Positions 1-10,731 of a stretch of DNA of 10,731 nt are shown one piece after another. The first letter of the stretch is position 1. Every line of letters starts with the position of its first letter. The notes under the pieces are model-generated. The model ran no database searches. It had not been told where the DNA came from and saw only the letters and a program-made list of their open reading frames with translations. Where the stretch lies: positions 1 through 10,731 of the forward strand of contig JAYVCD010000204.1 of assembly GCA_043750125.1 (NCBI GenBank). Direction: 5' to 3'. Both the position numbers and the translations under genes were made by a program. This stretch comes from Archangiaceae bacterium. Its GTDB lineage: Bacteria > Myxococcota > Myxococcia > Myxococcales > Myxococcaceae.

Positions 1-53
1 CGCAGGGCCGCCGCGCAGCGGCTCGCAGCGGGCGCAGAAGATCCCCTGATGGT

Positions 54-2402
54 TCAGGGGATCAAAGTGAGGAACAGCACGTTTTTCGGCTCGGAAGATT
101 TGATCGCCACCGCGATGGTTCCTCCTTTGGGAAGCGAAGCGGCGCCATTGGGACTGACGATCTGCCCCGGTTCCGAAAGGCTGGAAACCCGACCGCTCTC
201 GAAGAACTGCAGCTCGATTCCTGCGAGCCGCTGGATCTTCATCCGGTCGGTCGGAATGAAGGGACTCGAGTTGCTGCTCAGCACTCCAATTCCAATCTTG
301 CGCGCTTCCGACTTCACGCCATCGAGCACGAAGACGTTCGCCCCATCTGAAAAGCCGGCGAACTTCCCGAGCAACGGGTTGATGACGCTCGACTTCGAGC
401 CGACCATCGTGAAGTTGTAGCTTCCGTCGAGGGCCAGCGTTTCGGGAGCGAGCTCCGGGCTGTCGTAGACCACCGCGACCCGCTTCATCGTCGACGTCCT
501 CACCCACATCGCCCCGGGGGCATTGACGATCGGACTCTGTCCGGTGGAGTCGAGCGTCACGTCGGTGTCGGTGGTGGCAATTCCGCTCTTGAGGTCAAGG
601 CGTCGAGTCGGGTTGCTGCTGAACGCGATGTAGCGGGTCGGGCTGATCCACGCTGCGCCTTGCAGATTCAACCCAGTCAGGTGAACGATCGAATTGAGGT
701 TGGGAGGAACGCTGTCCTCGCGCACTTCAATTCCCAGTCCGCCCGACGAGTACGTGACCACCCGCGTCGCCGTCTCGTTGAAGAGCAGCTGGTACGCCGA
801 TGCGTGCAGTGTCGTCGCGCTCCCGTCGGCGGCTTTGACCAGCACCCTGCCTGGAGTCACTCCGCCCCAGGCCAGGGCGACCCAGTCTTTGACGGTGCCT
901 GAGAGGATGTATGGCGTCGTGGGAATCACTGCCGCCACCTGCGATGCGGTGTTCGCGGTCGAGCTCAGCACCTGGACGTTGCAGGTCGCCGCGCAGTTGT
1001 ACCCCCACAACACCGCGTAGGCGTAGCTGGGGCCGACTGGGGCAAATGCGTATGCCCCGAAGGTCTGCAGGTTGGTGAAAGCCGGGCTCACGCTGGTCGG
1101 GGTTATCAGCTGAACGTCAAAGGGAAGCGAGGCGCTGGTCCGTGCGAGGAACCGCTCGTTCGACTGAAAGTACGAAGGCAGGAAGGCCGGAAAGGTCGTC
1201 TTCACCCCGGTATCGAGGTCGACCCGGACCAGCTGATTCTGCGGCGTCCCGGTGAGAAACATCATTGTCGACTCGTCATTCGAGATGACCGGGCCGTTCA
1301 AGATCCCCGGCGCGGCGATCGAGTGGATCTGTCCGGTCACCGAGTTGACCGCGATCACCCCATTGGACGAGCCGACGACGAAGGCCGCCCACTTTCCGTT
1401 CTTGCTCAGGTAGAGCTGGGACACGTTGCCAATCGCAAACAGCTTCCGGGTGAAGGTCTTGGTGTCGAGAAAGTAGTACTCACTTTGGTAGTCGGTATCG
1501 ACGAGGACCCGAAGCACCGCGATGTCCGATTCGCTCGTCGCTTCCCACGAGGCGCCGCTGATCCGCGAGGGCCACGGAAACGCTTTGTACAGGCTCAACG
1601 TCTTCACCGCGATCGTCGTCGTCTGCCCCGCGCGCACCGTCGCAAAACCCAGCGACTGTTTCGGATACCCGGCCCGCTCGGCGACGGCCTCGTACTCGCC
1701 CGGCGGCAGCGTGAGCGTGAAGCCTCCGTTCTCGTTGGTCATCGCCGAGATGTCGGCCACCGAGACCTTGATGTCTTTGGGGCTTCCCCCATTGAACAGG
1801 GCCACGGTGCCTTCGAGCTTTCCGGTCAGCGTCAGGTCATTGCCCAGCGTCAGCGGCAGCGCTTCATTCTTCCCGCGCTTGAGCTTCACCATCGCGCTCG
1901 CCTGTTGGGGAAGCGGACCCGGGGCCTTTGCCACCAGCGCGTATTCGCCTGTCGGCACATCGAAGAATCCATAGCTGCCGGCGCCGTCGGTCAGCGAGAC
2001 GCGATCGCTTCCGGACAAGTAGACCGTCGCCCCCACCGCTGGCCCTGCGCTGTTCATCACCTTGCCGGTCACCGAAGCGAGCGGGTTGAAGATCAGATCC
2101 GGCACGGCGATCGAGGTGCTGCCGTCGGACTCGGTGCCGAACGCGTGCCGGCCTTCTTTGGTGTCGGGCCCCTCAACCGACACCTGGTACACGCCGCGGG
2201 GCAGCTTCTCGAAGCTGTAGGCTCCACCCCCGCCCGTCTCGACCTGCTTCCCCACCGCGCCCAGCAGCGTGACCCGAAGCCCGGCTGCGTCGCTGCCATC
2301 GCTGAACGCCACCTTCCCCGAAATCGTCCCGTTGGCTCCCCCACCACAGGCGGCGAGACAAAACATTGCTGCGCAGACTGCTGCACGGGCACCGGGGGGC
2401 AT
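54..2402 (-). CDS. Lipoprotein with three carboxypeptidase-regulatory-like (beta-sandwich) repeats and a C-terminal probable beta-propeller (TolB-like) region, 782 aa
   Basis: The start is reassigned from 2651 to the ATG at 2402, which has a GGAG RBS (2414-2411) upstream. The N-terminus MPPGARAAVCAAMFCLAAC ends in a lipobox. Three repeats follow the pattern G-x-(I/V/L)-x-G-x-V...T-x-x-x-G-x-(Y/F)...(L/V)P-x-G-x-Y: GTISGKV..LPRGVY, SVTGKV..VPTGEY, GKLEGTV..LPPGEY. The remainder is beta-rich with blade-like motifs (LSKNGKWAAF, ISNDESTMMF, FNETATRVVTY). Confidence 0.8.
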   Translation of the reverse strand: MPPGARAAVCAAMFCLAACGGGANGTISGKVAFSDGSDAAGLRVTLLGAVGKQVETGGGGAYSFEKLPRGVYQVSVEGPDTKEGRHAFGTESDGSTSIAVPDLIFNPLASVTGKVMNSAGPAVGATVYLSGSDRVSLTDGAGSYGFFDVPTGEYALVAKAPGPLPQQASAMVKLKRGKNEALPLTLGNDLTLTGKLEGTVALFNGGSPKDIKVSVADISAMTNENGGFTLTLPPGEYEAVAERAGYPKQSLGFATVRAGQTTTIAVKTLSLYKAFPWPSRISGASWEATSESDIAVLRVLVDTDYQSEYYFLDTKTFTRKLFAIGNVSQLYLSKNGKWAAFVVGSSNGVIAVNSVTGQIHSIAAPGILNGPVISNDESTMMFLTGTPQNQLVRVDLDTGVKTTFPAFLPSYFQSNERFLARTSASLPFDVQLITPTSVSPAFTNLQTFGAYAFAPVGPSYAYAVLWGYNCAATCNVQVLSSTANTASQVAAVIPTTPYILSGTVKDWVALAWGGVTPGRVLVKAADGSATTLHASAYQLLFNETATRVVTYSSGGLGIEVREDSVPPNLNSIVHLTGLNLQGAAWISPTRYIAFSSNPTRRLDLKSGIATTDTDVTLDSTGQSPIVNAPGAMWVRTSTMKRVAVVYDSPELAPETLALDGSYNFTMVGSKSSVINPLLGKFAGFSDGANVFVLDGVKSEARKIGIGVLSSNSSPFIPTDRMKIQRLAGIELQFFESGRVSSLSEPGQIVSPNGAASLPKGGTIAVAIKSSEPKNVLFLTLIP

Positions 2403-2698
2403 TTCGATTTCTCCATGGCCCCGAGGGTAGAGGGCCCAACGTGCTGGGAACCTAGCGCGGGGCCCGCCGGGTGAGACAACCAAAGCCGAATGAAAACCCT
2501 CTGAAGAACTGCGCCTGAACAGTCCACTTCGGCTGCGCAATGCCACCCGCAGTGACCAGGACGAAGCGACGCCGACTCCCGAAACGGCGCTGTGTTGGCT
2601 CTTTCCGATTGGGGAAAACGAAGCGGCGCGTGAAATGCACTGGTCGCCCAACGTTCGGCAAAGGGGTTACGCGGGTCGCTGCCCGGTGGAGCTCGGTG

Positions 2699-4273
2699 AT
2701 GTTCAAACGCACGTCGTTGATTGCTTTGGTCGCAACCGTCGCGGCTTGTACCGGCGAAGTCTCGGAAATCTACAACCCGGGGGAGCCCGTGCCTTCCCAG
2801 GCGGTGCCGCCCACGACGCAGCCTCCGGTTCGTCCTGACGTCCCCGCGACGGTCCCCAACTCGAAGGACGCGCTGCCGCCGGTGGTCGGGGTGCCTCTCG
2901 CGGCGGCCATTCCGCTGACCTTCCAGCCCACGACCCCCATCACCCCCGTGGTGCAGAGCGATATCTTCGTCGGCCTTCCCCGGGGAGCCGCGCAGCTCGC
3001 GATCCTTTGCGCCCGGGGTAACGGCGACCCGATTTCCCTGCGGCTGTGCGCGCCCCACCTTCCGGCGATCACCAGTCTGATCGAGCTGCAGAAAGTGCTG
3101 GGCCTCGATTTCAAGCCCGGGCAGCTGGGCAACGGGCAGGGCGGCAACCCGGCCTTTGTGCTCACCGGCCACTCTTCTTCGCTCGTCACCCGGTTTGTGT
3201 CCGCGATCAATCCGCGGGCCTTGATTTTCACCCCGCCCGCTTCGAACAACCGGGTCGGAACCCCGGTCGCCAACCCCAACTTCATCGGAATGGGGTTCGT
3301 GCGCGGTGAGCAGTTCGCCGAGTTGGTGGCGAAGGACCCCAAGACCAATGACCTCAATTTCTTCCTCGTCAGCTTCGAGCATGCCTGCAGTGCGACGAAC
3401 AGCTGCGCCCCGGCCGATCTGCTCACTCCCGACGTGGAAAAGAACTTCACCAACGTCACCGTGTTCCAGGACATCGACATCAAGAACACCGTCTTCGACT
3501 GCTTGCAGTGCCACCAGGCCGCGGGGGCAGGCTCGAAGAAGATCCTCCGGATGCAGGAGCTGCAGAATCCGTGGACCCACTTTTTCCGCAACAACCGCCC
3601 TGGCGGCCAGGCGATGATTGCCGACTACAACTCGGTGCACGGAACTCAAGAGGTCTACGCGGGCATCCCGGGCGCGGCGATCACCAATTCCGACCCGGGT
3701 CGGCTCGAGGGTCTGGTGGAAAACGAAGGCTTCAAGAACCAGCCCAACGAGTTCCTGACTTCGAAGATCGAGGCGGAAGTTCTGGCGTCAGGCACCACTC
3801 CGGGCACCAGCGCGACCTGGAACCTGCTGTACGCGAACGTGCTCAACGGGTCGGTGATTCCGGTTCCGTACCACGACGTGCGCGTCACCGACCCGGCGAA
3901 GGTGACGGCCGCCGCCACCAACTACAAGGCGGTCATGGCCGGGACGTTGCCTCGCAGCAGCCTGATGGACTTCCGCAGCATCTTCAACGGAGCGGGGATG
4001 AGCGACATGAGCTTCCAGCCCAAGGCCTCGCTGGACGGCAGAGGCATCATGGTCGCCATCTGTCAGCACTGTCACAACGCGGTGCTGGACCAGACGATTT
4101 CCCGCGCGCGGTTCGACGTAACCAAGCTCGCGACGATGACCCGTGACGAGAAGGACATCGCGATCGCCCGGTTGCAGATCTCGATCGACGACCGTCGCAA
4201 GATGCCCCCCTCGCGGTTCGCCACGCTGAGCCCGGCCCAGATTCAGCTGGCCATCGACGAGCTCAAGAAGTGA
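2699..4273 (+). CDS. Di-heme c-type cytochrome lipoprotein of unknown function, 524 aa
   Basis: ATG at 2699 with GGAG at 2688-2691. The signal peptide MFKRTSLIALVATVAAC contains a lipobox and is followed by a Pro-rich linker. Two CXXCH motifs are present: CLQCH (3500-3514) and CQHCH (4061-4075). C-terminal RRKMPP is a typical distal-Met motif of cytochrome c domains. Confidence 0.8.
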   Translation: MFKRTSLIALVATVAACTGEVSEIYNPGEPVPSQAVPPTTQPPVRPDVPATVPNSKDALPPVVGVPLAAAIPLTFQPTTPITPVVQSDIFVGLPRGAAQLAILCARGNGDPISLRLCAPHLPAITSLIELQKVLGLDFKPGQLGNGQGGNPAFVLTGHSSSLVTRFVSAINPRALIFTPPASNNRVGTPVANPNFIGMGFVRGEQFAELVAKDPKTNDLNFFLVSFEHACSATNSCAPADLLTPDVEKNFTNVTVFQDIDIKNTVFDCLQCHQAAGAGSKKILRMQELQNPWTHFFRNNRPGGQAMIADYNSVHGTQEVYAGIPGAAITNSDPGRLEGLVENEGFKNQPNEFLTSKIEAEVLASGTTPGTSATWNLLYANVLNGSVIPVPYHDVRVTDPAKVTAAATNYKAVMAGTLPRSSLMDFRSIFNGAGMSDMSFQPKASLDGRGIMVAICQHCHNAVLDQTISRARFDVTKLATMTRDEKDIAIARLQISIDDRRKMPPSRFATLSPAQIQLAIDELKK

Positions 4274-7197
4274 TTCGTGCTGCGGGCGCGGTGCTGCTCT
4301 TTGTGGCCGTGGGGTGTTCGAAGCCTGCCCCCGTCCACCGCAGCGAGCAGCCACGCGCCGGGCGAGACTATGAGGTCCCGGTTCAGGCGCTGTATGCCGA
4401 CGACCCGGGGTACGCGGCGCGGTGGCCGGTCGAGTACCGGGTGCGCGTCTGCGAGGGCCTGACCCAGGACCTGCAACGCGAAGCGCTGGACCTCGGCGCG
4501 CAAATGGGCGCTCCGTACTTTGCGGACCAGGTCGAGTGGTCCTGGCCGACGGCCGCCGCCGTTTCGGCGTTGCCGATGGGAGTCAGGCTCTCGGCCTTCA
4601 CCCCGGGCGTTCCGGCGCCGATCGCGGCCCCTGAGATCGAAGCGCATTGGCGGCAGTGGTTGGCGCCGTTTCGTTTCCTCGAGCGCTCGACCCTGAAGAT
4701 CAAGCCCGCCACCGTGAGTCCGGGGGGAGGTCTGCTCGCGACGGTGATGTTCGAGTTCGCCGGCCTCGAGCGCAGCGGAGACTGGCGGCGCGACTCGGGC
4801 AGCGCGTCGGTCGGGTTCGAGAAGACTTCCGGCGGTTGGAAGATCGTCCGCTTTGCCGTCACCGCGCTCGAGACGCAGCGCTCGTCTTCGAAGTTGTTCG
4901 AAGACGTGACCCTGGCCTGGCTCGCTTCGGTGCCCGCCTCGGTGCGCACCGATCTGCTGCAGGGGTCGGCCTCGGACGAAATTCATCGCCGGCTGCTGGC
5001 CGAGGTCAACCCGCTGCCGACCACCCTCGATCACCTTCAACCCGTCGCGATGGACGCGCACCCCGGGGTGGTGGTGGTCGACATCAATCACGACGGCTTC
5101 GATGATCTCTTCGTCTGGGACGTGCTGGGCACTTCGGTGCTGCTCGAGAACCAGGCGGGCCACGGGTTCGTCGACAAGACCGCCGAACATGGGCTTGGGT
5201 TCGAGGGCGTCTCGGCGGCGGCGTTCGCCGACCTCGACTCGGACGGAGAGCTCGACCTGGTCCTCGGTCGATGGTTCGCGCCCTCGCAGATCTTCCTCGG
5301 CCACCAGGGCCGCTTCTTCCCCGCGCGGGCAGGGCGGTTCGAACCGCTTCCGGCCAACGTCGTCACCGTCTCGCTGGCCGACGTGGACGCCGACGGTCGG
5401 CTCGACATCTTCCTCGGAACCGCGGCGCACGACTTTCACGCTCGGGTGGTCGCGTTGATGGAAAACGGCGAGGCGTTCGCCCACACCGTGGCCCCGTCCG
5501 AGCTGGCGCTGCTCACCGCCGCTTTGCCCACGGCACGGGCGGCGCGCGCCGAAGGCAAGCTCGACCCCAACGTCTACGAGATTGGCCCTGCCAACGTGTT
5601 GTTGATGAACCGCGGCGACGGGCACTTCGTCGACGAGACCGCCGAGAGGGGGCTGACGTTGTTCCGAAGCACGCTCGAGGCTGCATTTGCCGACGCCGAC
5701 GGCGATGGCTTCCCCGACCTGTTTCTGGCCAATGACTTCGCGCCGGCCAACCTCTACCTGAACCGCAAAGGTCACTTCGAAGACGTGAGCGTTCAGAGCG
5801 GCGCAGACCACATCTTCTTCGCGATGGGGGCGTCCTGGGGCGACTTCGATGGCGACGGCGATCTCGATCTCTTCGCTTCGGCGATGCAGTCCAGCGCCGG
5901 CAATCGAATCATGTCGGACGAGAAGAATTTTTCGACCGGGCACGACGCCGCGGCGCGCCTGGCCCGCAAGCAGGCCGCGCGCGGCAACACCCTGCTGCGC
6001 AACGACGGCAAGGGGCACTTCAGCGACGCCACCGCCGAGCCTGCGCTTGCCTCGCTTCGCAATGCGCAGTGGGCGTACTCAGGCCAGTTCGTCGACGGCG
6101 ACGGCGACGGCTGGTTGGATCTCTTCGTTCCGAACGGGTTTTTCACCAGCGCGACTTCGGCGGACCCGACGTGTGTCCGGGATCTTTGAAGTGATTACTG
6201 GCGAGGGGTCACCTCGCTGCCCACCACCGACGGAATGGCGAGCGGTCCCCGGGCCTCGGCGCGCATGGACTTCTCGGGCCGAGAGCGTGACCGCTTCTTT
6301 GCCTCGGTCGGCGGCGAGAAGTTTGTCGACCTGTCCTACCTGTCCGGCGCGGACGGAGCGGAAGACGGTCGCGCCTTCGCCCGAGCCGACTTCGATCACG
6401 ACGGACACGAAGACCTGGTGGTCATCAACCGCAACGCGCCCCGACTGCGGCTGTTTCGCAATGCCGTCGGGCCGCGCCTGCAGAACCGGTTTCTGGGCCT
6501 GCGACTGCAGGGCAAGCTCAACCGGGAAGCGGTCGGGGCCACCGTCACGGTGCGCTGCGATGGAAAGACGTTCTTCCGAGCCGTTGAGCTGGGAGCCGGT
6601 TTCGCCACCCAGAATTCTGGCTGGCTGACGATCGGTGTCGGCTCGTGTCTCAAGGCCGAGGCCGTCGAGGTCGGCTTCCCCGGAGCCGAGCGCCGCGCCT
6701 TCAAGGACGTAGCCACCAATCGCCATTACGAAATCGTCGAAGGCAAAGGTCTCAAAGACTTTGTGCCTGCGCTGACGGTCGCAGCCCGCGACAACGTGCC
6801 GCCGGGTTCCGCGATGCTCGCCACGCTGGGGCCCCTGGCGAAAAAGGCGGTGTTGGTCGAGACGTTCGCTTCCTGGTGCGAGGCCTGCCAACGCAGTCAG
6901 CCGCGCCTCGAGGCGCTCGGCAGCCAGTTTTCCGAACAGCTCGAGGTGGTCGGGGTCACCCTCGAGCCGAAGGACGACGCCGCGGTCATCCAGGCCTACC
7001 GGGCCGCGCACGCGATCGGACATCGGTTGTTGTCCTTCAGCGCAGCCGGTGCCACTGCGGTCGATGGAATCTTCGGCCCGTCTGCGCCACTGCCGTCGAT
7101 CGTGCTGCTCGAGGTGGCCACCGGAAGGGAGCTGCTGCGAACCGCCGGCGTGCCGACCCGCTCAGAGGTCGCCAAGGCGCTGATGGGTCAGAAGTAG
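4270..7197 (+). CDS. Putative selenoprotein: FG-GAP repeat (CRTAC1-like) + ASPIC/UnbV + TlpA-like thioredoxin lipoprotein, ~975 aa, with UGA at codon 640 read as Sec
   Basis: The GTG start overlaps the upstream stop (GTGA 4270-4273) and a lipobox VAVGC is present. Multiple FG-GAP Ca-binding repeats occur (DINHDGFDDLF, DLDSDGELDL, DVDADGRLDIF, DADGDGFPDLF, DFDGDGDLDLF, DGDGDGWLDLF). Track ORFs 4270..6189 and 6235..7197 share one frame with a single TGA between them (..CVRDL*SDYWRGV..). The downstream part continues the family pattern (FSGRERDRFF, DGRAFARADFDHDGHEDLVV), then ASPIC/UnbV (NREAVGATVTV..GAGFATQNS..IGVG) and Trx (FASWCEAC). Product family is high confidence; the Sec reading is an inference supported by the hairpin. 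Confidence 0.75.
6199..6219 (+). promoter_or_regulatory. Candidate bacterial SECIS element
   Basis: Stem GCGAGG (6201-6206) pairs perfectly with CCTCGC (6212-6217) and extends by G-U and U-G pairs to 6199/6219. The 5-nt apical loop GGUCA (6207-6211) begins with G, and 17 nt separate it from the UGA. This fits the bacterial SECIS consensus. GGUC also occurs in the apical loop of the E. coli fdhF SECIS. Confidence 0.7.
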
Positions 7198-7212
7198 GTC
7201 CCGCGTTCTCGA

Positions 7213-7311
7213 ATGCTCGAGGGCCTGCGCATCGTCGCGCTGAAGGACCCGGGTGGCCGCAGGCTCGCATTGAGCCGTTCAAAAATAGACTTAAGGTCCC
7301 ACCCCCAATGA
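7213..7311 (+). other. 32-codon mini-ORF, possibly a VOC/glyoxalase C-terminal remnant
   Basis: Translates as MLEGLRIVALKDPGGRRLALSRSKIDLRSHPQ. The segment GLRIVALKDPGGRRLAL resembles the VOC terminal motif G-x-R-x-x-x-x-x-D-P-x-G-N-x-x-E-L. The first ~17 codons end mostly in G/C. Its TGA overlaps the next ATG (ATGA 7308-7311). Confidence 0.3.
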
Positions 7312-8291
7312 CCTTCTCCTCTCGACTTCGGACCCTGCTGCTCGTGCTTGCCCCTGCGCTGGCTCTGGCCGCCCCACCCGCCGTCCCAGCCAAACCGTCG
7401 GCACCCCCTGACTTCTGGAAGCATTGGAGCGACGGTCGTTCCGAGCTCGATGGGTATCGCCTGGTGCAACCCCGCTACGGGCAGAAGCGGAACGGACACG
7501 CGGTGATGATCTGGGTGATCGAGCCCTTCTCGCGCGCGAAGCACGTCAAGAGCGACCACCCCGAAGCGCCCGGGGCCGACGCGCCGGTGGTGATGAAGCT
7601 CAACCACGTTCGGAAATTTCAAACCGGGATCTACGACTACAGCCTGATGACTTCGGTCTTCTCGCCGGTGGTGATCGGCGCGACAGATCTGGCTGCGCAG
7701 ACCCCGCTGAAGGTTTCGTTCACCAGTCAGGAATGGTGCGGCAACGTTTTCCAGCAGGTGACGCGCACCGGCTCAGAGCTCGACACGCGGTGGTTTTCGT
7801 ACTTCGAGTCGGAAGGCGACGGGGCACAGAAGCTCTCGACTTCCACGGACCTGGTGTTCGACGATGAGATCTGGATCCGGGTTCGAGAGCTCAGCGGTGG
7901 GCCCTTCGCCGCGGGCCAATACAAGCTGCTCCCGTCGCTTGCCTCGGTGCGGCTGGGGCACGCGGCGATGGTGCCCGGGACCCTGGCCGTCAAGCGGGGC
8001 GAGTTCGGGACCACCCGGGTTCCCGCAGGCAGCTTCGAGACCGAGACCTGGCAGCTGGAACTGACGTGGGGTCCCAAAGGCAGCCAACACCAGGCGCGTA
8101 CGGTCTGGGTCGAGAAGTCCTACCCCCACCGAATCATCGCGTGGGAGGGAGACGTGCCCGGGTTTGGAAACAACGAGCCGGCGCGCGAGCGTGGAGAGCT
8201 GACCGGCTCAATGCGTGACGCGTATTGGCAGCACCACGACGAGGGCGACGAGAAGCTGCTCGAGCAGCTCGGGTTGTCCCCCGTTCACTGA
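7308..8291 (+). CDS. Conserved secreted hypothetical protein, 327 aa (family often mislabelled 'septum formation inhibitor Maf')
   Basis: The start is reassigned to the ATG at 7308, giving a Sec-pathway signal MTFSSRLRTLLLVLAPALALA. Recognisable family motifs include FWKHWSDGRSELDGYRLVQPRYG..R.G.AV.I.V.EPF, VMKLN..RKFQTGIYDYSLMTSVF, KVSFTSQEWCG, SYFESEGD and R.AYWQ. No true Maf pyrophosphatase motifs are visible. Confidence 0.8.
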   Translation: MTFSSRLRTLLLVLAPALALAAPPAVPAKPSAPPDFWKHWSDGRSELDGYRLVQPRYGQKRNGHAVMIWVIEPFSRAKHVKSDHPEAPGADAPVVMKLNHVRKFQTGIYDYSLMTSVFSPVVIGATDLAAQTPLKVSFTSQEWCGNVFQQVTRTGSELDTRWFSYFESEGDGAQKLSTSTDLVFDDEIWIRVRELSGGPFAAGQYKLLPSLASVRLGHAAMVPGTLAVKRGEFGTTRVPAGSFETETWQLELTWGPKGSQHQARTVWVEKSYPHRIIAWEGDVPGFGNNEPARERGELTGSMRDAYWQHHDEGDEKLLEQLGLSPVH

Positions 8292-8307
8292 AAAAAGCGC
8301 CCGGAGG

Positions 8308-9160
8308 TCAGGGGGCTCGAACGTAGAATGCGCTCGTCCGCGCGGGCAGGGTCAGCTTGATCCGCCCCGCATTCAGCTCGAGCACGTTGGAGCTGTCCTT
8401 CAGCTGCTCGACCAGTCGGGCATCGGGGGCCAGCCACGCGGGCGCCTGAAGGTTGATGTTGGCTGAATTCGCACCGTTGTTGATCAGCACAATTACCTGG
8501 CTGTCGCCCGAGCGACGGCCATAGGCAAATGCGTTGGAATTGGCCGGGCCGTTCTGGCGCCACAGCTCGTCGTAGCTTCCCTCGGCGAGCGCAGGAAGTG
8601 TGGTCCGCAGCCCAATCAACAGCTGCAGCCGCGCGAACACCGCCGCCGGGTTGGGAAGCGCTTCTCCGGGATGGCGAACGGTGCGTCCCACCGGGTCGAA
8701 CCCCCAGACCGGCATGTCGTGCCGGTTGTCGGGGTCGGGCCCTCCGTACATCCCCAGCTCGGCGCCGGCGTAGAGCTGGGGGATTCCGAGCAGGCTGAAC
8801 AGCGCGGTCAGCGCGAGAAAATAGCGGCGCTGGATTTCCTCTTCGCCTGCTTCGTCGCGGCGACCAGCTGTTGCAGCTGAGCCGGGGTCCCGAGCTTCGG
8901 CTCGACCTGGCCATCGTCCGGCACCGTCAGGTCCGACCAGTAGCCGTGAAACTTCTGCGGGTCGTTCAGATCGTGACAGTCCGGAAAAAGCGGTCGGTCA
9001 TCACCAGGTAGCTTACCCGGGCTCGCCAGTCGGACTGCACCAGCGCCGAAGCGGTCACTCCCTTCGTCTCTTCCACGTATTGCACCGGGCTTTCGGGAAC
9101 CGGCTGCGGTTGCGCGCAGGACGTGAGCATCGGGAGCAACGCGAGAATGATCTGTTTCAT
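8308..9160 (-). pseudogene. GH13 alpha-amylase family lipoprotein pseudogene with internal deletions and frameshifts
   Basis: Three frames each carry GH13 pieces. 9160-8984: MKQIILALLPMLTSC...DWRARVSYLVMTDRFF. 8984-~8848: PDCHDLNDPQKFHG|YWSDLTVPDDGQVEPKLGTPAQLQQLV. ~8847-8308: EEEIQRRYFLALTALFSLLGIPQLYAGAELGMYGGPDPDNRHDMP...LRTTLPALAEG..AFAYGR..VIVLINNG. The catalytic regions (DxVxNH, GxRxD, catalytic E, NHD) are absent. Confidence 0.85.
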
Positions 9161-9576
9161 AGGGAAGGGCGCCTGAGCACGTCGAATGCCAGACCGACCG
9201 CCCTTCCGATCAGCGGGCCCAGACGCCCTGCGAGGTGGTCGTAACAAAAGCGGGCAATGAGAATGGGCTGGTCGGCGGCTTGACTCGACTCGACCCTGGG
9301 CGCCACCACCATTAGCGATTTGAGCATCCGCGCCACGTCGGCCGAAGCCAGTCGCAGATATTTGTGCCTGCCCTGTCGGGTCGAGACAATCAGCCCGTCC
9401 GTCAGCAAGCGCTGCAGGTGCGCCGTCGTCGTCGCGGGAGTGACCTGAGCTCCCCACGCCAGCTCTTCGGCCGTCAGGGCTCGGCCTTCCATCAACAACA
9501 ACAACATCAACATCCGGATTCGGGTCGGGTCGCCAATCGCGGTCGCCAGGCGGGCGAAGTCGGGCTCTGCATTCAC
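9157..9576 (-). CDS. ArsR/SmtB-family winged-HTH regulator (CYDHLAG subfamily), C-terminally truncated and probably a pseudogene
   Basis: The probable GTG start at 9576 gives VNAEPDFARLATAIGDPTRIRML..LMEGRALTAEELA..AQVTPATTTAHLQRL..GLI....QGRHKYLRLAS..VA, then ARFCYDHLAGRLG. It ends 19 aa later (139 aa total) and lacks the CLDWSERRxHLAG segment I recall for this subfamily. Confidence 0.8.
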   Translation of the reverse strand: MNAEPDFARLATAIGDPTRIRMLMLLLLMEGRALTAEELAWGAQVTPATTTAHLQRLLTDGLIVSTRQGRHKYLRLASADVARMLKSLMVVAPRVESSQAADQPILIARFCYDHLAGRLGPLIGRAVGLAFDVLRRPSL

Positions 9577-9640
9577 CGTTCGATGCCAACCAAACTGTCG
9601 ACGCGTGACAACGCTGCGGGCCCGGCGGCACCGTGACGAG

Positions 9641-9774
9641 ATGAACCCCATCGCCGCAGTCACCGCACCTGACCCTTACCCCTACTACGCAGAGCTCTGG
9701 CGACCGTCGGATTCGTGTCGCTGCGGCGTGTCTACCCGGCAGGCCTTTCCCCAGTTGAAAGGCAGATCCCCTAA
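9641..9774 (+). pseudogene. Cytochrome P450 N-terminal remnant
   Basis: ATG 9641 gives MNPIAAVTAPDPYPYYAEL, matching the DPYPxYxxL start of bacterial P450s. Similarity is lost after ~9697. It lies divergent from the ArsR gene across a 64-bp gap. Confidence 0.6.
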
Positions 9775-9808
9775 GCTCGCGCTTCAGCCTCGCTTCGGAG
9801 CTCCACTC

Positions 9809-10731
9809 GTGAAAACCCTCTTCTGGTCTGTTGCGGTCGTCTCGTTCCTCGTCGGATGTGGACCCGGGACGGAAGGGGGCGCGGACGCAGGAACAGGCGG
9901 CGGTGCGGGAGGATCCCAGGCGGGCGGTGGAGTCGGAGGGTCGGCCGGTGGCGGCTCGGCCGGCGGAGGAGCCGGCGGTTCAGGAGGCTCAGGCGGAGGC
10001 GTCGGAGTCGGCGGCGGCTCGGGCGGAGGGGGCGGCGGCACGGGTGGCGTCGGCGGCGGCTCGGGTGGCGGCCTCGGAGGTTCGGGTGGCGGCCTCGGAG
10101 GCTCGGGCGGTGGATCCGGAACATCGGATGGAGGCTGCGCAGGCCTCATCTACTGCGAAGACTTCGAAGGCCTCTCAGGCGTCTTGAACAACAACGACGT
10201 GGTGGGCGCGTGGAAGGCCTCCGTCGGCGGGCCCGGAACCTCGATGAAGGTCGACGGGGTCAAGCCCCGGAATGGAGCCCGCTCGCTTCACATCACCGTT
10301 CCCGTCGCTGACGCCGGAGCGCGTGCAACCCTCAACCAGTTGGCAACGGCCGGCCTCATTCCCGGTAACAACCTGTTTGGGCGCGCCGAAATTTTCTACT
10401 CGAGCGACGCCGGCTACGGGCTGCCGATTGGAGTGCACTCGTGGTTTTTCAACGCAGGCGGGAAGGCCGTCGACGGCGGCTCGTCGACCATCAACCTCGG
10501 CGGTGGCGGCACCAAGTTGCAGCTCAACTACCACCCGCAAGTGCCGGCCGTCGAACAGAGCGTCCAGGGCGGAGTGATGACCGCCGGCCAATGGCACTGC
10601 ATTCAGTGGCAGTACGACGGCTCGGGGAACCCACCCAAGAACGAAGCCCGGGTGTGGGTTGACGGAACGCTGGCCGTCAGCACGCTGACTCCTCCGAAGT
10701 CGTGGGACTTCGCCAAGCCGTGGACCACGAT
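9809..10731 (+). CDS. Lipoprotein with Gly-rich linker and ConA-like/polysaccharide-lyase-like (Cip1-like) domain, partial (runs off the window end)
   Basis: Absent from the ORF track because it has no stop in the window. GTG at 9809 with GGAG at 9797-9800 gives MKTLFWSVAVVSFLVGC (lipobox). A ~90-aa G/S linker follows, then GCAGLIYCEDFEG...GARSLHI...NLFGRAEIFY...HSWFF...GQWHCIQWQYDG...EARVWVDG. Confidence 0.8.
   Translation, partial: MKTLFWSVAVVSFLVGCGPGTEGGADAGTGGGAGGSQAGGGVGGSAGGGSAGGGAGGSGGSGGGVGVGGGSGGGGGGTGGVGGGSGGGLGGSGGGLGGSGGGSGTSDGGCAGLIYCEDFEGLSGVLNNNDVVGAWKASVGGPGTSMKVDGVKPRNGARSLHITVPVADAGARATLNQLATAGLIPGNNLFGRAEIFYSSDAGYGLPIGVHSWFFNAGGKAVDGGSSTINLGGGGTKLQLNYHPQVPAVEQSVQGGVMTAGQWHCIQWQYDGSGNPPKNEARVWVDGTLAVSTLTPPKSWDFAKPWTT
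9860..10135 (+). repeat. Low-complexity Gly/Ser-coding tract including a 21-bp tandem duplication
   Basis: GGN-rich codons throughout. TCGGGTGGCGGCCTCGGAGG(T/C) occurs twice, at 10061-10081 and 10082-10102 (SGGGLGG x2). Confidence 0.85.

Follow-up and report, generated by a model that had tools for sequence, protein, structure and literature searches.

Bacterial selenoprotein genes carry an in-frame UGA followed by a stem-loop within the coding region, the selenocysteine insertion sequence (SECIS), and Escherichia coli fdhF is the textbook case of a SECIS lying directly 3' of the UGA. In nearly all known bacterial selenoproteins, the selenocysteine (Sec) belongs to a classical redox motif, thioredoxin-like or other. 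Proteins of the CRTAC1/ASPIC-UnbV family, built from an FG-GAP calcium-binding β-propeller and an UnbV_ASPIC domain, are enigmatic, their biochemical role being unknown in bacteria and animals. Here we analyze a stretch of 10,731 nucleotides from an Archangiaceae bacterium of the phylum Myxococcota (contig JAYVCD010000204.1 of assembly GCA_043750125.1, positions 1 to 10,731 of the forward strand), hereafter the window, which holds a gene with features of both. Its single internal UGA, at positions 6187–6189, is followed by a coding-region stem-loop within the limits of bacterial SECIS elements (bSECIS), and its product matches murine CRTAC1 (PDB 9etn) in fold and in sequence, with the same propeller and UnbV_ASPIC domain. 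From comparative evidence, codon 640 is very probably read as Sec. For the locus as a whole, the best explanation is probably Sec at this UGA within one exported 975-residue propeller–ASPIC–thioredoxin protein.

The UGA at codon 640 and the hairpin that follows it

Two open reading frames (ORFs), 4270–6189 (639 residues) and 6235–7197 (320 residues), lie in the same frame on the plus strand. From 4270 to 7197 the only in-frame stops are the TGA at codon 640 and the terminal TAG, and read-through of codon 640 gives a 975-residue product that begins at a GTG. The 15 codons separating the ORFs translate as SDYWRGVTSLPTTDG. Across 34 aligned proteins, conservation in this region peaks immediately 3' of the TGA; of the residues encoded between the ORFs, W644 never varies, and R645 and V647 reach at least 90% conservation. 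Ahead of the ATG at 6235, the sole purine-rich stretch is GACGGA, which touches the ATG. An earlier interpretation made from the letters of the window (the sequence-only reading) had pointed to the lone TGA between same-frame ORFs, to intervening codons that read as protein, to a downstream ATG without a properly spaced ribosome-binding site and to a gene that standard annotation would split. All four points were borne out, and gene callers split the gene both here and in dozens of database entries.

The sequence-only reading had also raised the possibility of a sequencing error at the TGA. In Logan contigs of two runs, positions 5800–6600 were reproduced without a differing letter at ∼8x depth, TGA included. 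Because both runs may be source samples, this read support is not independent. Contigs of two further runs (X3 and X4) left 6043–6285 uncovered. In the same metagenomes, short contigs of other organisms piled up over the FG-GAP DxDxDG segments at 5838–5875 and 6001–6037 (depth >100 versus ∼8 elsewhere), which reflects conservation of the repeat motif rather than copy number.

Relatives have a TGA at this codon as well. Searched in six frames, 60 related genomes gave 12 strong matches in 11 of them, with exactly one TGA each, plus one weaker match (G010). When the TGA columns were placed by tblastn on the fetched loci, all 12 fell in the same alignment column, within the motif (K/R)-D-L-U-S-x-(Y/W)-W-R-Q-V. 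Of 401 genomes of the phylum, 33, the window's own among them, gave a total of 36 matches at E ≤ 1e-15, and every match contained exactly one TGA. Twenty-nine of these phylum loci were fetched, 23 of them new, and the TGA was at the same codon in 29/29. Five more TGA loci were found in two Roseibacillus metagenome-assembled genomes (MAGs; Verrucomicrobiota, L038 and L108), another MAG (L044) and two metagenome contigs (L119 and L130); for metagenome loci, a loose regular expression for the motif mostly caught FG-GAP repeats, and five true site matches were kept. Counted together, 40 loci other than the window have TGA at codon 640, with the general motif D-x-U-S-x-[YFW]-W-R, and neither TAA nor TAG occurs at this codon among the 41 loci examined. 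Homologues show no conserved start codon 3' of the TGA, and their downstream domains are intact and retain conserved motifs. Paralogous TGA-bearing copies occur in some genomes of the phylum: three loci in G114 (C64, C124 and C105) and two in G037 (C85 and C144).

Protein databases give a matching picture. Among the best 120 matches to residues 520–780, 30 end exactly at ...(V/T/F)RDL, and among the best 150 representatives of clusters at 50% identity, ∼45 end exactly at the D-x that precedes the site. Eleven further cluster representatives are C-terminal halves of 309–370 residues, all with WCxxC. Entries ending at the site are known as protein only, with the stop codon inferred; L119 matches one such type and has TGA. 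Those that end at D-x are named 'VCBS repeat-containing protein' or 'hypothetical protein'. That so many entries stop at the site indicates systematic splitting by gene callers and a family that is large and diverse. The closest proteins bear labels that indicate Myxococcota; one of them, P0011, is labelled Kofleriaceae.

We then tabulated the residue at the site in uninterrupted homologues. A first set of 88 site-covering proteins had N in 32, D in 24, E in 11, S in 10, C in 3, G in 3, A in 1 and a gap in 4; a second set of 57 had E in 18, S in 11, D in 5, C in 4 and other residues in 19. Cysteine occupies the site in P0003 (RELCSDYWRGV, 54% identity over the query region), P0120, P0145, P0181 and P0233, so the Sec/Cys pairing typical of selenoproteins is present. 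The motif DL-x-S-x-F-W-R, named in the sequence-only reading, does exist in homologues. Its expectation of Cys at the site was met by these five proteins, but most homologues carry N, D, E or S instead. The comparisons returned both elements that the sequence-only reading had looked for: TGA at codon 640 in other loci and Cys in some uninterrupted homologues.

A short hairpin follows the UGA at 6199–6219, as the sequence-only reading had proposed (6–8 bp, loop GGUCA). It has 8 bp, including two G-U pairs, a 6-bp core and a predicted energy of –11.7 kcal/mol. Its GGUC-type loop presumably resembles that of fdhF. Under the same geometric rules, hairpins at least as stable occur after 15 of the gene's 975 codons and after 197 of 10667 positions in the window, or ∼2%. 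The unconstrained fold of 6180–6260 is not unusual (z = 0.38), a value that does not discriminate because the sequence is GC-rich (65% over the window). A scan of 6100–6350 against Rfam at E ≤ 10 returned four chance eukaryotic matches and no family, and this null is uninformative because bacterial SECIS elements are poorly covered there. The consensus bSECIS model given in section 5 of a 2026 review (PMC13188914) has a loop of 3–9 nt, a stem of 4–16 bp, a G in the first two loop positions, a spacing of 16–37 nt and a minimum free energy ≤ –7.5 kcal/mol. The hairpin lies within all of these limits, with a 5-nt loop, an 8-bp stem and a spacing of 17 nt.

Since the hairpin alone is only mildly improbable, its weight rests on comparative data. 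We aligned 39 Sec-form sequences without gaps; over the 35 distinct ones, the 6-bp core was paired in 92.9% of 210 cells. Both-side changes were seen in three of the six core pairs (C-G to A-U or U-A, C-G to G-C and A-U to G-C), and 0 of 500 shuffles equalled the real alignment in pairing or in covariation score. With the 3' arm shifted by 1–3 columns, pairing fell to 22–57%. A version of the alignment with 18 sequences gave 89.1% pairing and 5/7 compensated pairs. The window (RGVTSL) and a 67%-identical relative, L199, keep the hairpin at the same distance despite differing peptides, and it is also kept in L044 and L203 (LDFARDAVAS, GGUC loop), which differ from each other by a C-G to U-A swap, and in L119, L130, L204 and L207. 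These data show that the hairpin is conserved among TGA-bearing homologues, with compensatory changes.

The genome has most of the machinery for Sec. The assembly (6.17 Mb, 460 contigs, 89.4% complete) contains selD (339 bits) and selB (281 bits), both above cut-off, and a tRNA-Sec (65 bits) with anticodon TCA by ARAGORN. Its selD (G000:C278, locus L001) is itself a selenoprotein gene, with an in-frame TGA at locus positions 1528–1530 in the canonical context GG-U-GAK. That TGA is followed, at a spacing of 16 nt, by a 7-bp hairpin with loop CGGGAC (–11.1 kcal/mol), a geometry like that of hairpin 6199–6219. SelB and tRNA-Sec would decode the UGA at 6187–6189 as Sec, with hairpin 6199–6219 directing them. 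The conserved TGA, the Cys forms, the conserved hairpin and the presence of selB, selD and tRNA-Sec all support the assignment of codon 640 to Sec made in the sequence-only reading; the refuting conditions named there, to the extent that they were checked, did not overturn it.

Predicted domains and a possible partner for U640

The 975-residue product would comprise, in order, a signal or lipoprotein peptide, an N-terminal domain, a CRTAC1-like calcium-binding FG-GAP propeller with UnbV_ASPIC, and a TlpA/ResA-like thioredoxin domain with CxxC. Homologues likewise begin with hydrophobic, signal-like N-termini. Pfam FG-GAP_3 matches four stretches of the protein. The C-terminal domain scored 19.9, 22 and 25.5 bits against the NCBIfam models for TlpA (NF047696), DsbE (TIGR00385) and thioredoxin (TIGR01068), whose cut-offs are 230, 123 and 96.8 bits; judged by these scores, it is related to the TlpA/DsbE/thioredoxin equivalog families and is not a member of them.

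An AlphaFold2 model built from the 34-sequence alignment had a mean predicted local distance difference test score (pLDDT) of 84.2 and a predicted TM-score (pTM) of 0.83. Its best PDB match by fold (Foldseek) was murine CRTAC1, 9etn_A (E 1.1e-24, TM 0.72 by target), and 9etn was also the best match by sequence (E 8.5e-11). The C-terminal domain matched the thiol-disulfide oxidoreductase 4nmu. In the model, U640 lies at the start of helix 639–648, in its first turn, after an extended segment (621–638) and within an insertion of the propeller, and propeller strands and the ASPIC domain continue 3' of residue 640. Thiolates and selenolates at a helix N-terminus are stabilized by the helix dipole, as in the CxxC motifs of thioredoxin folds. 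The sequence-only reading had placed Sec in a loop of a calcium-binding propeller, away from any classical redox fold. The propeller stands, but the modeled position is not a plain loop but the first turn of a helix, and the protein does have a thioredoxin-like domain with CxxC.

Three Cys/Sec columns, and only three, are common to all nine aligned Sec forms: 640, 870 and 873, the last two being those of the CxxC. Of the Sec forms whose downstream frame is complete, 39 with the window counted, 36 have this motif, for example as WCKPC, GCKPC, SCKAC, WCGPC or YCASC, or as WCAPC in the Roseibacillus form of TPR type. BLASTP was too insensitive to find the domain in relatives (four matches), so we used a hidden Markov model (HMM) made from 12 Sec-form domains. 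It matched 53 of 120 relatives, and the motif was readable in 42 of these non-Sec proteins: three had CxxC, 15 the second Cys alone (mostly SxxC) and 24 neither. The combination of CxxC and Sec recurs in at least five divergent Sec lineages, namely the window's subfamily, the main phylum group, L201/L202/L226, L119/L130 and Roseibacillus. Separately, the AhpC-TSA/Redoxin domain of TPR-fused non-Sec relatives (P0049, P0059, P0072 and others) has mostly SxxC, AxxS or SxxS; as read from these motifs, many such relatives may be one-Cys peroxiredoxin-like or redox-dead.

Because the columns U640, C870 and C873 are shared and CxxC co-varies with Sec, we propose a selenol–thiol redox relay with the fused CxxC domain. 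The selenol, in the first turn of a helix on the propeller, would be the redox-active nucleophile. U640 would react with an extracytoplasmic substrate (peroxide, disulfide or similar oxidant) to give a selenenylsulfide or selenenic acid; resolving this product would fall to the fused CxxC domain, which an envelope reductant pathway would in turn re-reduce. We regard the relay as plausible but put it forward tentatively. Three Sec forms (L044, L203 and L207) and the Cys form P0003 are without a thioredoxin-like domain, which shows that a fused partner is not obligatory, and three non-Sec forms carry CxxC.

A genuine Sec could also act without any relay, on the face of the propeller, either by coordinating a soft metal or metalloid or by binding substrate, and would then replace the N/D/E/S of the helix first turn. 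The oxygen-ligand or helix-capping residues that most relatives of the first set have at the site, in a calcium-binding propeller, are in line with such a role, as are the forms just named that lack the thioredoxin-like domain; an ArsR/MarR-type regulator gene ∼2 kb downstream on the opposite strand is a weak hint in the same direction. The relay better accounts for the contrast in CxxC between Sec forms (36/39) and non-Sec forms (3/42) and for the restriction of common Cys/Sec columns to U640, C870 and C873, and a second conserved ligand residue near the site was not identified. We consider a ligand or binding role possible but rather doubtful.

The Sec forms without the thioredoxin-like domain make up a divergent subtype, HDL-U-LDFARDAVAS (L044 and L203, also L207). 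L044 ends in a hydrophobic, Arg-rich tail and may be anchored differently, and no thioredoxin-like ORF was found within 3 kb of it. The MAG that holds L044 is labelled Enterobacteriaceae, a label that looks doubtful because L203, of the same subtype, sits in a genome of the window's phylum.

Evidence against Sec, other readings and neighboring genes

Several observations weigh against Sec at codon 640 or against parts of the interpretation built on it. Among full-length homologues, N, D, E or S at the site is the rule and Cys the exception, which is unusual for a selenoprotein family. Going by the aligned residues, Sec stands in for residues that favor the first turn of a helix and not for an ancestral Cys, and this is the main atypical point. 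The TGA-bearing relatives are kin, so that counts are not independent and raw numbers overstate the support. One Sec form, L211, has its stem disrupted by a Q-to-T change. Five non-Sec homologues (L039, L040, L118, L120 and L122) pair at 3–5 of the six positions in register, 20/30 overall. This residual pairing arises because the WRQVVA codons are self-complementary, and it means that the hairpin was completed, not created, in Sec forms. Non-Sec DNA controls number only five because contig scans gave mainly distant paralogues that were unalignable at the site; as a lead from these five, they suggest, speculatively, that a 'proto-SECIS' in the WRQVVA-coding sequence eased the origin of the Sec codon. 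Model confidence near U640 is modest (block pLDDT 58 and 78).

The machinery is also incomplete as assembled. The sequence-only reading had called for selA, selB, selC and selD; selB, tRNA-Sec and selD were found, but selA was not (TIGR00474, PF03841) in this 89.4%-complete assembly of 460 contigs. Above-cut-off selA is present in 45 of the 61 genomes searched, a set that includes the window's own genome, and in 3/4 genus-mates. It is also present in 11/12 TGA-bearing relatives and in 3/3 distant TGA-bearing genomes. The missing selA may be due to assembly incompleteness.

If not a dedicated Sec codon, the UGA might be a regulated or leaky stop, yielding mostly a 639-residue propeller fragment, with occasional Sec insertion or near-cognate read-through adding the ASPIC and thioredoxin part to give two isoforms. 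Bacterial Sec insertion is generally less efficient than ordinary decoding, which lends this some appeal. Yet a stop at 640 would cut the propeller within its blade region, with modeled strands continuing after the site, and the conserved hairpin and Sec machinery point to dedicated Sec decoding. A leaky stop as the gene's main behavior is improbable.

More improbable still is a pseudogene or a truly split gene, in which the TGA terminates translation and 6235–7197 is a separate or dead ORF. Standard callers do make this split, here and in the many database entries described above, and the absent selA could be read in its favor. Against it stand the TGA at the same codon in 41/41 loci from at least two phyla, never replaced by TAA or TAG, and the invariant W644 and nearly invariant R645 and V647 in codons that would be intergenic. 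There is likewise no conserved start codon past the TGA, and the downstream domains are intact with conserved motifs. The pseudogene reading was rejected on these comparative data. General reassignment of TGA (code 4 or 25) with no selenocysteine, for which the open frame is the only argument, has a negligible chance of being right and was rejected: TGA is the ordinary stop of the ORFs on both sides (4271–4273 and 8289–8291) and of several homologous genes, only one internal TGA occurs in 975 codons, the genome has tRNA-Sec and selB, and W and G are not the main residues that relatives have at the site. Sec at codon 640 thus remains the preferred reading of the UGA.

The features of the window are collected in Table 1. 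Upstream, the c-type-cytochrome-like gene ends in a TGA that shares bases with the GTG at which the selenoprotein gene begins (GTGA, 4270–4273), an arrangement that suggests translational coupling. The true start of this upstream gene is probably downstream of the ATG at 2540, because that ATG gives a long basic leader; the N-terminus of its product is lipoprotein-like. Atlas neighbors of the product are mostly Myxococcota hypothetical proteins, and 13–24% have cytochrome c families. The product of the downstream ORF 7308–8291 is also in Atlas, where its structural neighbors are unnamed clusters of Acidobacteriota and Verrucomicrobiota. Homologues of these two genes do not adjoin the distant Sec paralogues in five relatives (G012 among those checked for the upstream gene).

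Table 1. Coordinates of the features of the window, with strand and basis
Feature	Position	Strand	Basis or remark
Selenoprotein gene (predicted single gene), 975 codons, GTG start, TAG stop	4270..7197	+	Homologues uninterrupted across site; standard annotation gives two ORFs
Putative N-terminal signal peptide, lipobox-like ...LLFVAVGC	4270..4317	+	Judged by eye from translation
FG-GAP/VCBS β-propeller region, DxDxDG calcium-type motifs, holds Sec site	5062..6474	+	Pfam FG-GAP_3 1.7e-36, FG-GAP 7.7e-21; fold match 9etn_A
UGA very probably read as selenocysteine, U640, motif D-L-U-S-D-Y-W-R	6187..6189	+	TGA at same codon in 40 other loci; Cys in P0003 and others
Bacterial SECIS-like hairpin	6199..6219	+	Arms 6199–6206 / 6212–6219, apical loop GGUCA 6207–6211, 17 nt after UGA
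UnbV_ASPIC domain, residues 754–820	6529..6729	+	Pfam PF07593, 1.1e-09, 38.5 bits (cut-off 23.4)
C-terminal thioredoxin-fold (TlpA/ResA-like) domain	6802..7194	+	Pfam Thioredoxin 858–904, 26.2 bits (cut-off 23.5); Foldseek 4nmu; PDB thioredoxins by sequence
CxxC motif, C870-E-A-C873 (WCEAC 869–873)	6877..6888	+	Read in thioredoxin-like domain; compared across Sec and non-Sec forms
c-type-cytochrome-like protein gene, two CxxCH motifs, start codon uncertain	2540..4273	+	Weak Pfam similarity, below cut-off
Signal-peptide ORF, no Pfam family, possible operon member	7308..8291	+	93–110 nt past selenoprotein gene
CarboxypepD_reg-repeat protein gene	54–2651	-	
ArsR/MarR-type helix-turn-helix regulator gene	9157–9663	-	∼2 kb downstream of selenoprotein gene
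Gly-rich secreted or lipoprotein ORF, running off window end	9605–10729	+	

Comparison with known selenoproteins and CRTAC1-like proteins

The host family appears to be new to the selenoproteome. The 2026 review (PMC13188914) lists 119 prokaryotic selenoprotein families in its Table 1, and no FG-GAP, VCBS, ASPIC or CRTAC1 family is in that table, though the supplementary tables could list one. These four words are likewise absent from the main texts of the review and of the deep-Sep and BSepDB papers, whose supplements could list them. Literature searches combining selenoprotein or selenocysteine with FG-GAP, ASPIC, CRTAC1 or VCBS returned irrelevant papers only, as judged by titles and abstract openings, and no Sec was found there for CRTAC1 proteins. 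None of the NCBIfam selenoprotein models matches the 975-residue protein.

If the interpretation is correct, it offers the first functional handle on the CRTAC1/ASPIC-UnbV family: Sec would mark a probable reactive site, making the function of the family directly testable. It would also mean that standard annotation truncates such genes, leaving a whole selenoprotein family currently invisible in databases, and the partial hairpin of non-Sec relatives would be a tangible example of how new Sec codons can originate. One can go further and imagine that these exported selenoproteins form a large, uncatalogued family: Sec would have been recruited to a calcium-binding propeller of CRTAC1 type at an N/D/E/S site, eased by a proto-SECIS, and gained together with an intact CxxC to make a two-domain selenol–thiol envelope enzyme. 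This composite picture is conceivable, but we think it unlikely to hold in full.

Set against described systems, the locus is conventional in some respects and distinct in others. Relative to the known bacterial genes with a SECIS 3' of the UGA, the decoding mechanism is the ordinary one. The protein family and the lack of an Rfam match differ from those genes, and the hairpin overlaps the conserved peptide WRQVVA, whose codons themselves form most of the stem. The non-Sec FG-GAP/ASPIC proteins fused to TPR and AhpC-TSA/Redoxin domains, from Acidobacteriota, Planctomycetota and others, share the propeller–ASPIC core, the motif D-x-X-S-F-F-W-R-Q-V-V and often a thioredoxin-fold domain. They differ in having N, D, E or S at the site and mostly SxxC, AxxS or SxxS in place of CxxC (39/42), and in the five with DNA the hairpin is incomplete. 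CRTAC1 itself is alike in propeller and UnbV_ASPIC domain, whereas here Sec would lie in a propeller insertion and the protein has two additional domains, one N-terminal and one C-terminal, the latter thioredoxin-like with CxxC. Known Sec families with exported thiol-disulfide-type domains resemble this protein in that such a domain is associated with Sec. In those families, however, Sec is inside the redox motif (UxxC, UGC), whereas here the motif is all-Cys and Sec would be ∼230 residues upstream, in another domain. As far as could be seen, there is no precedent for Sec in this protein family, for its location in the protein or for the way in which it seems to be paired with a CxxC motif in a separate domain, and Sec would sit on a β-propeller scaffold rather than inside a classical redox motif.

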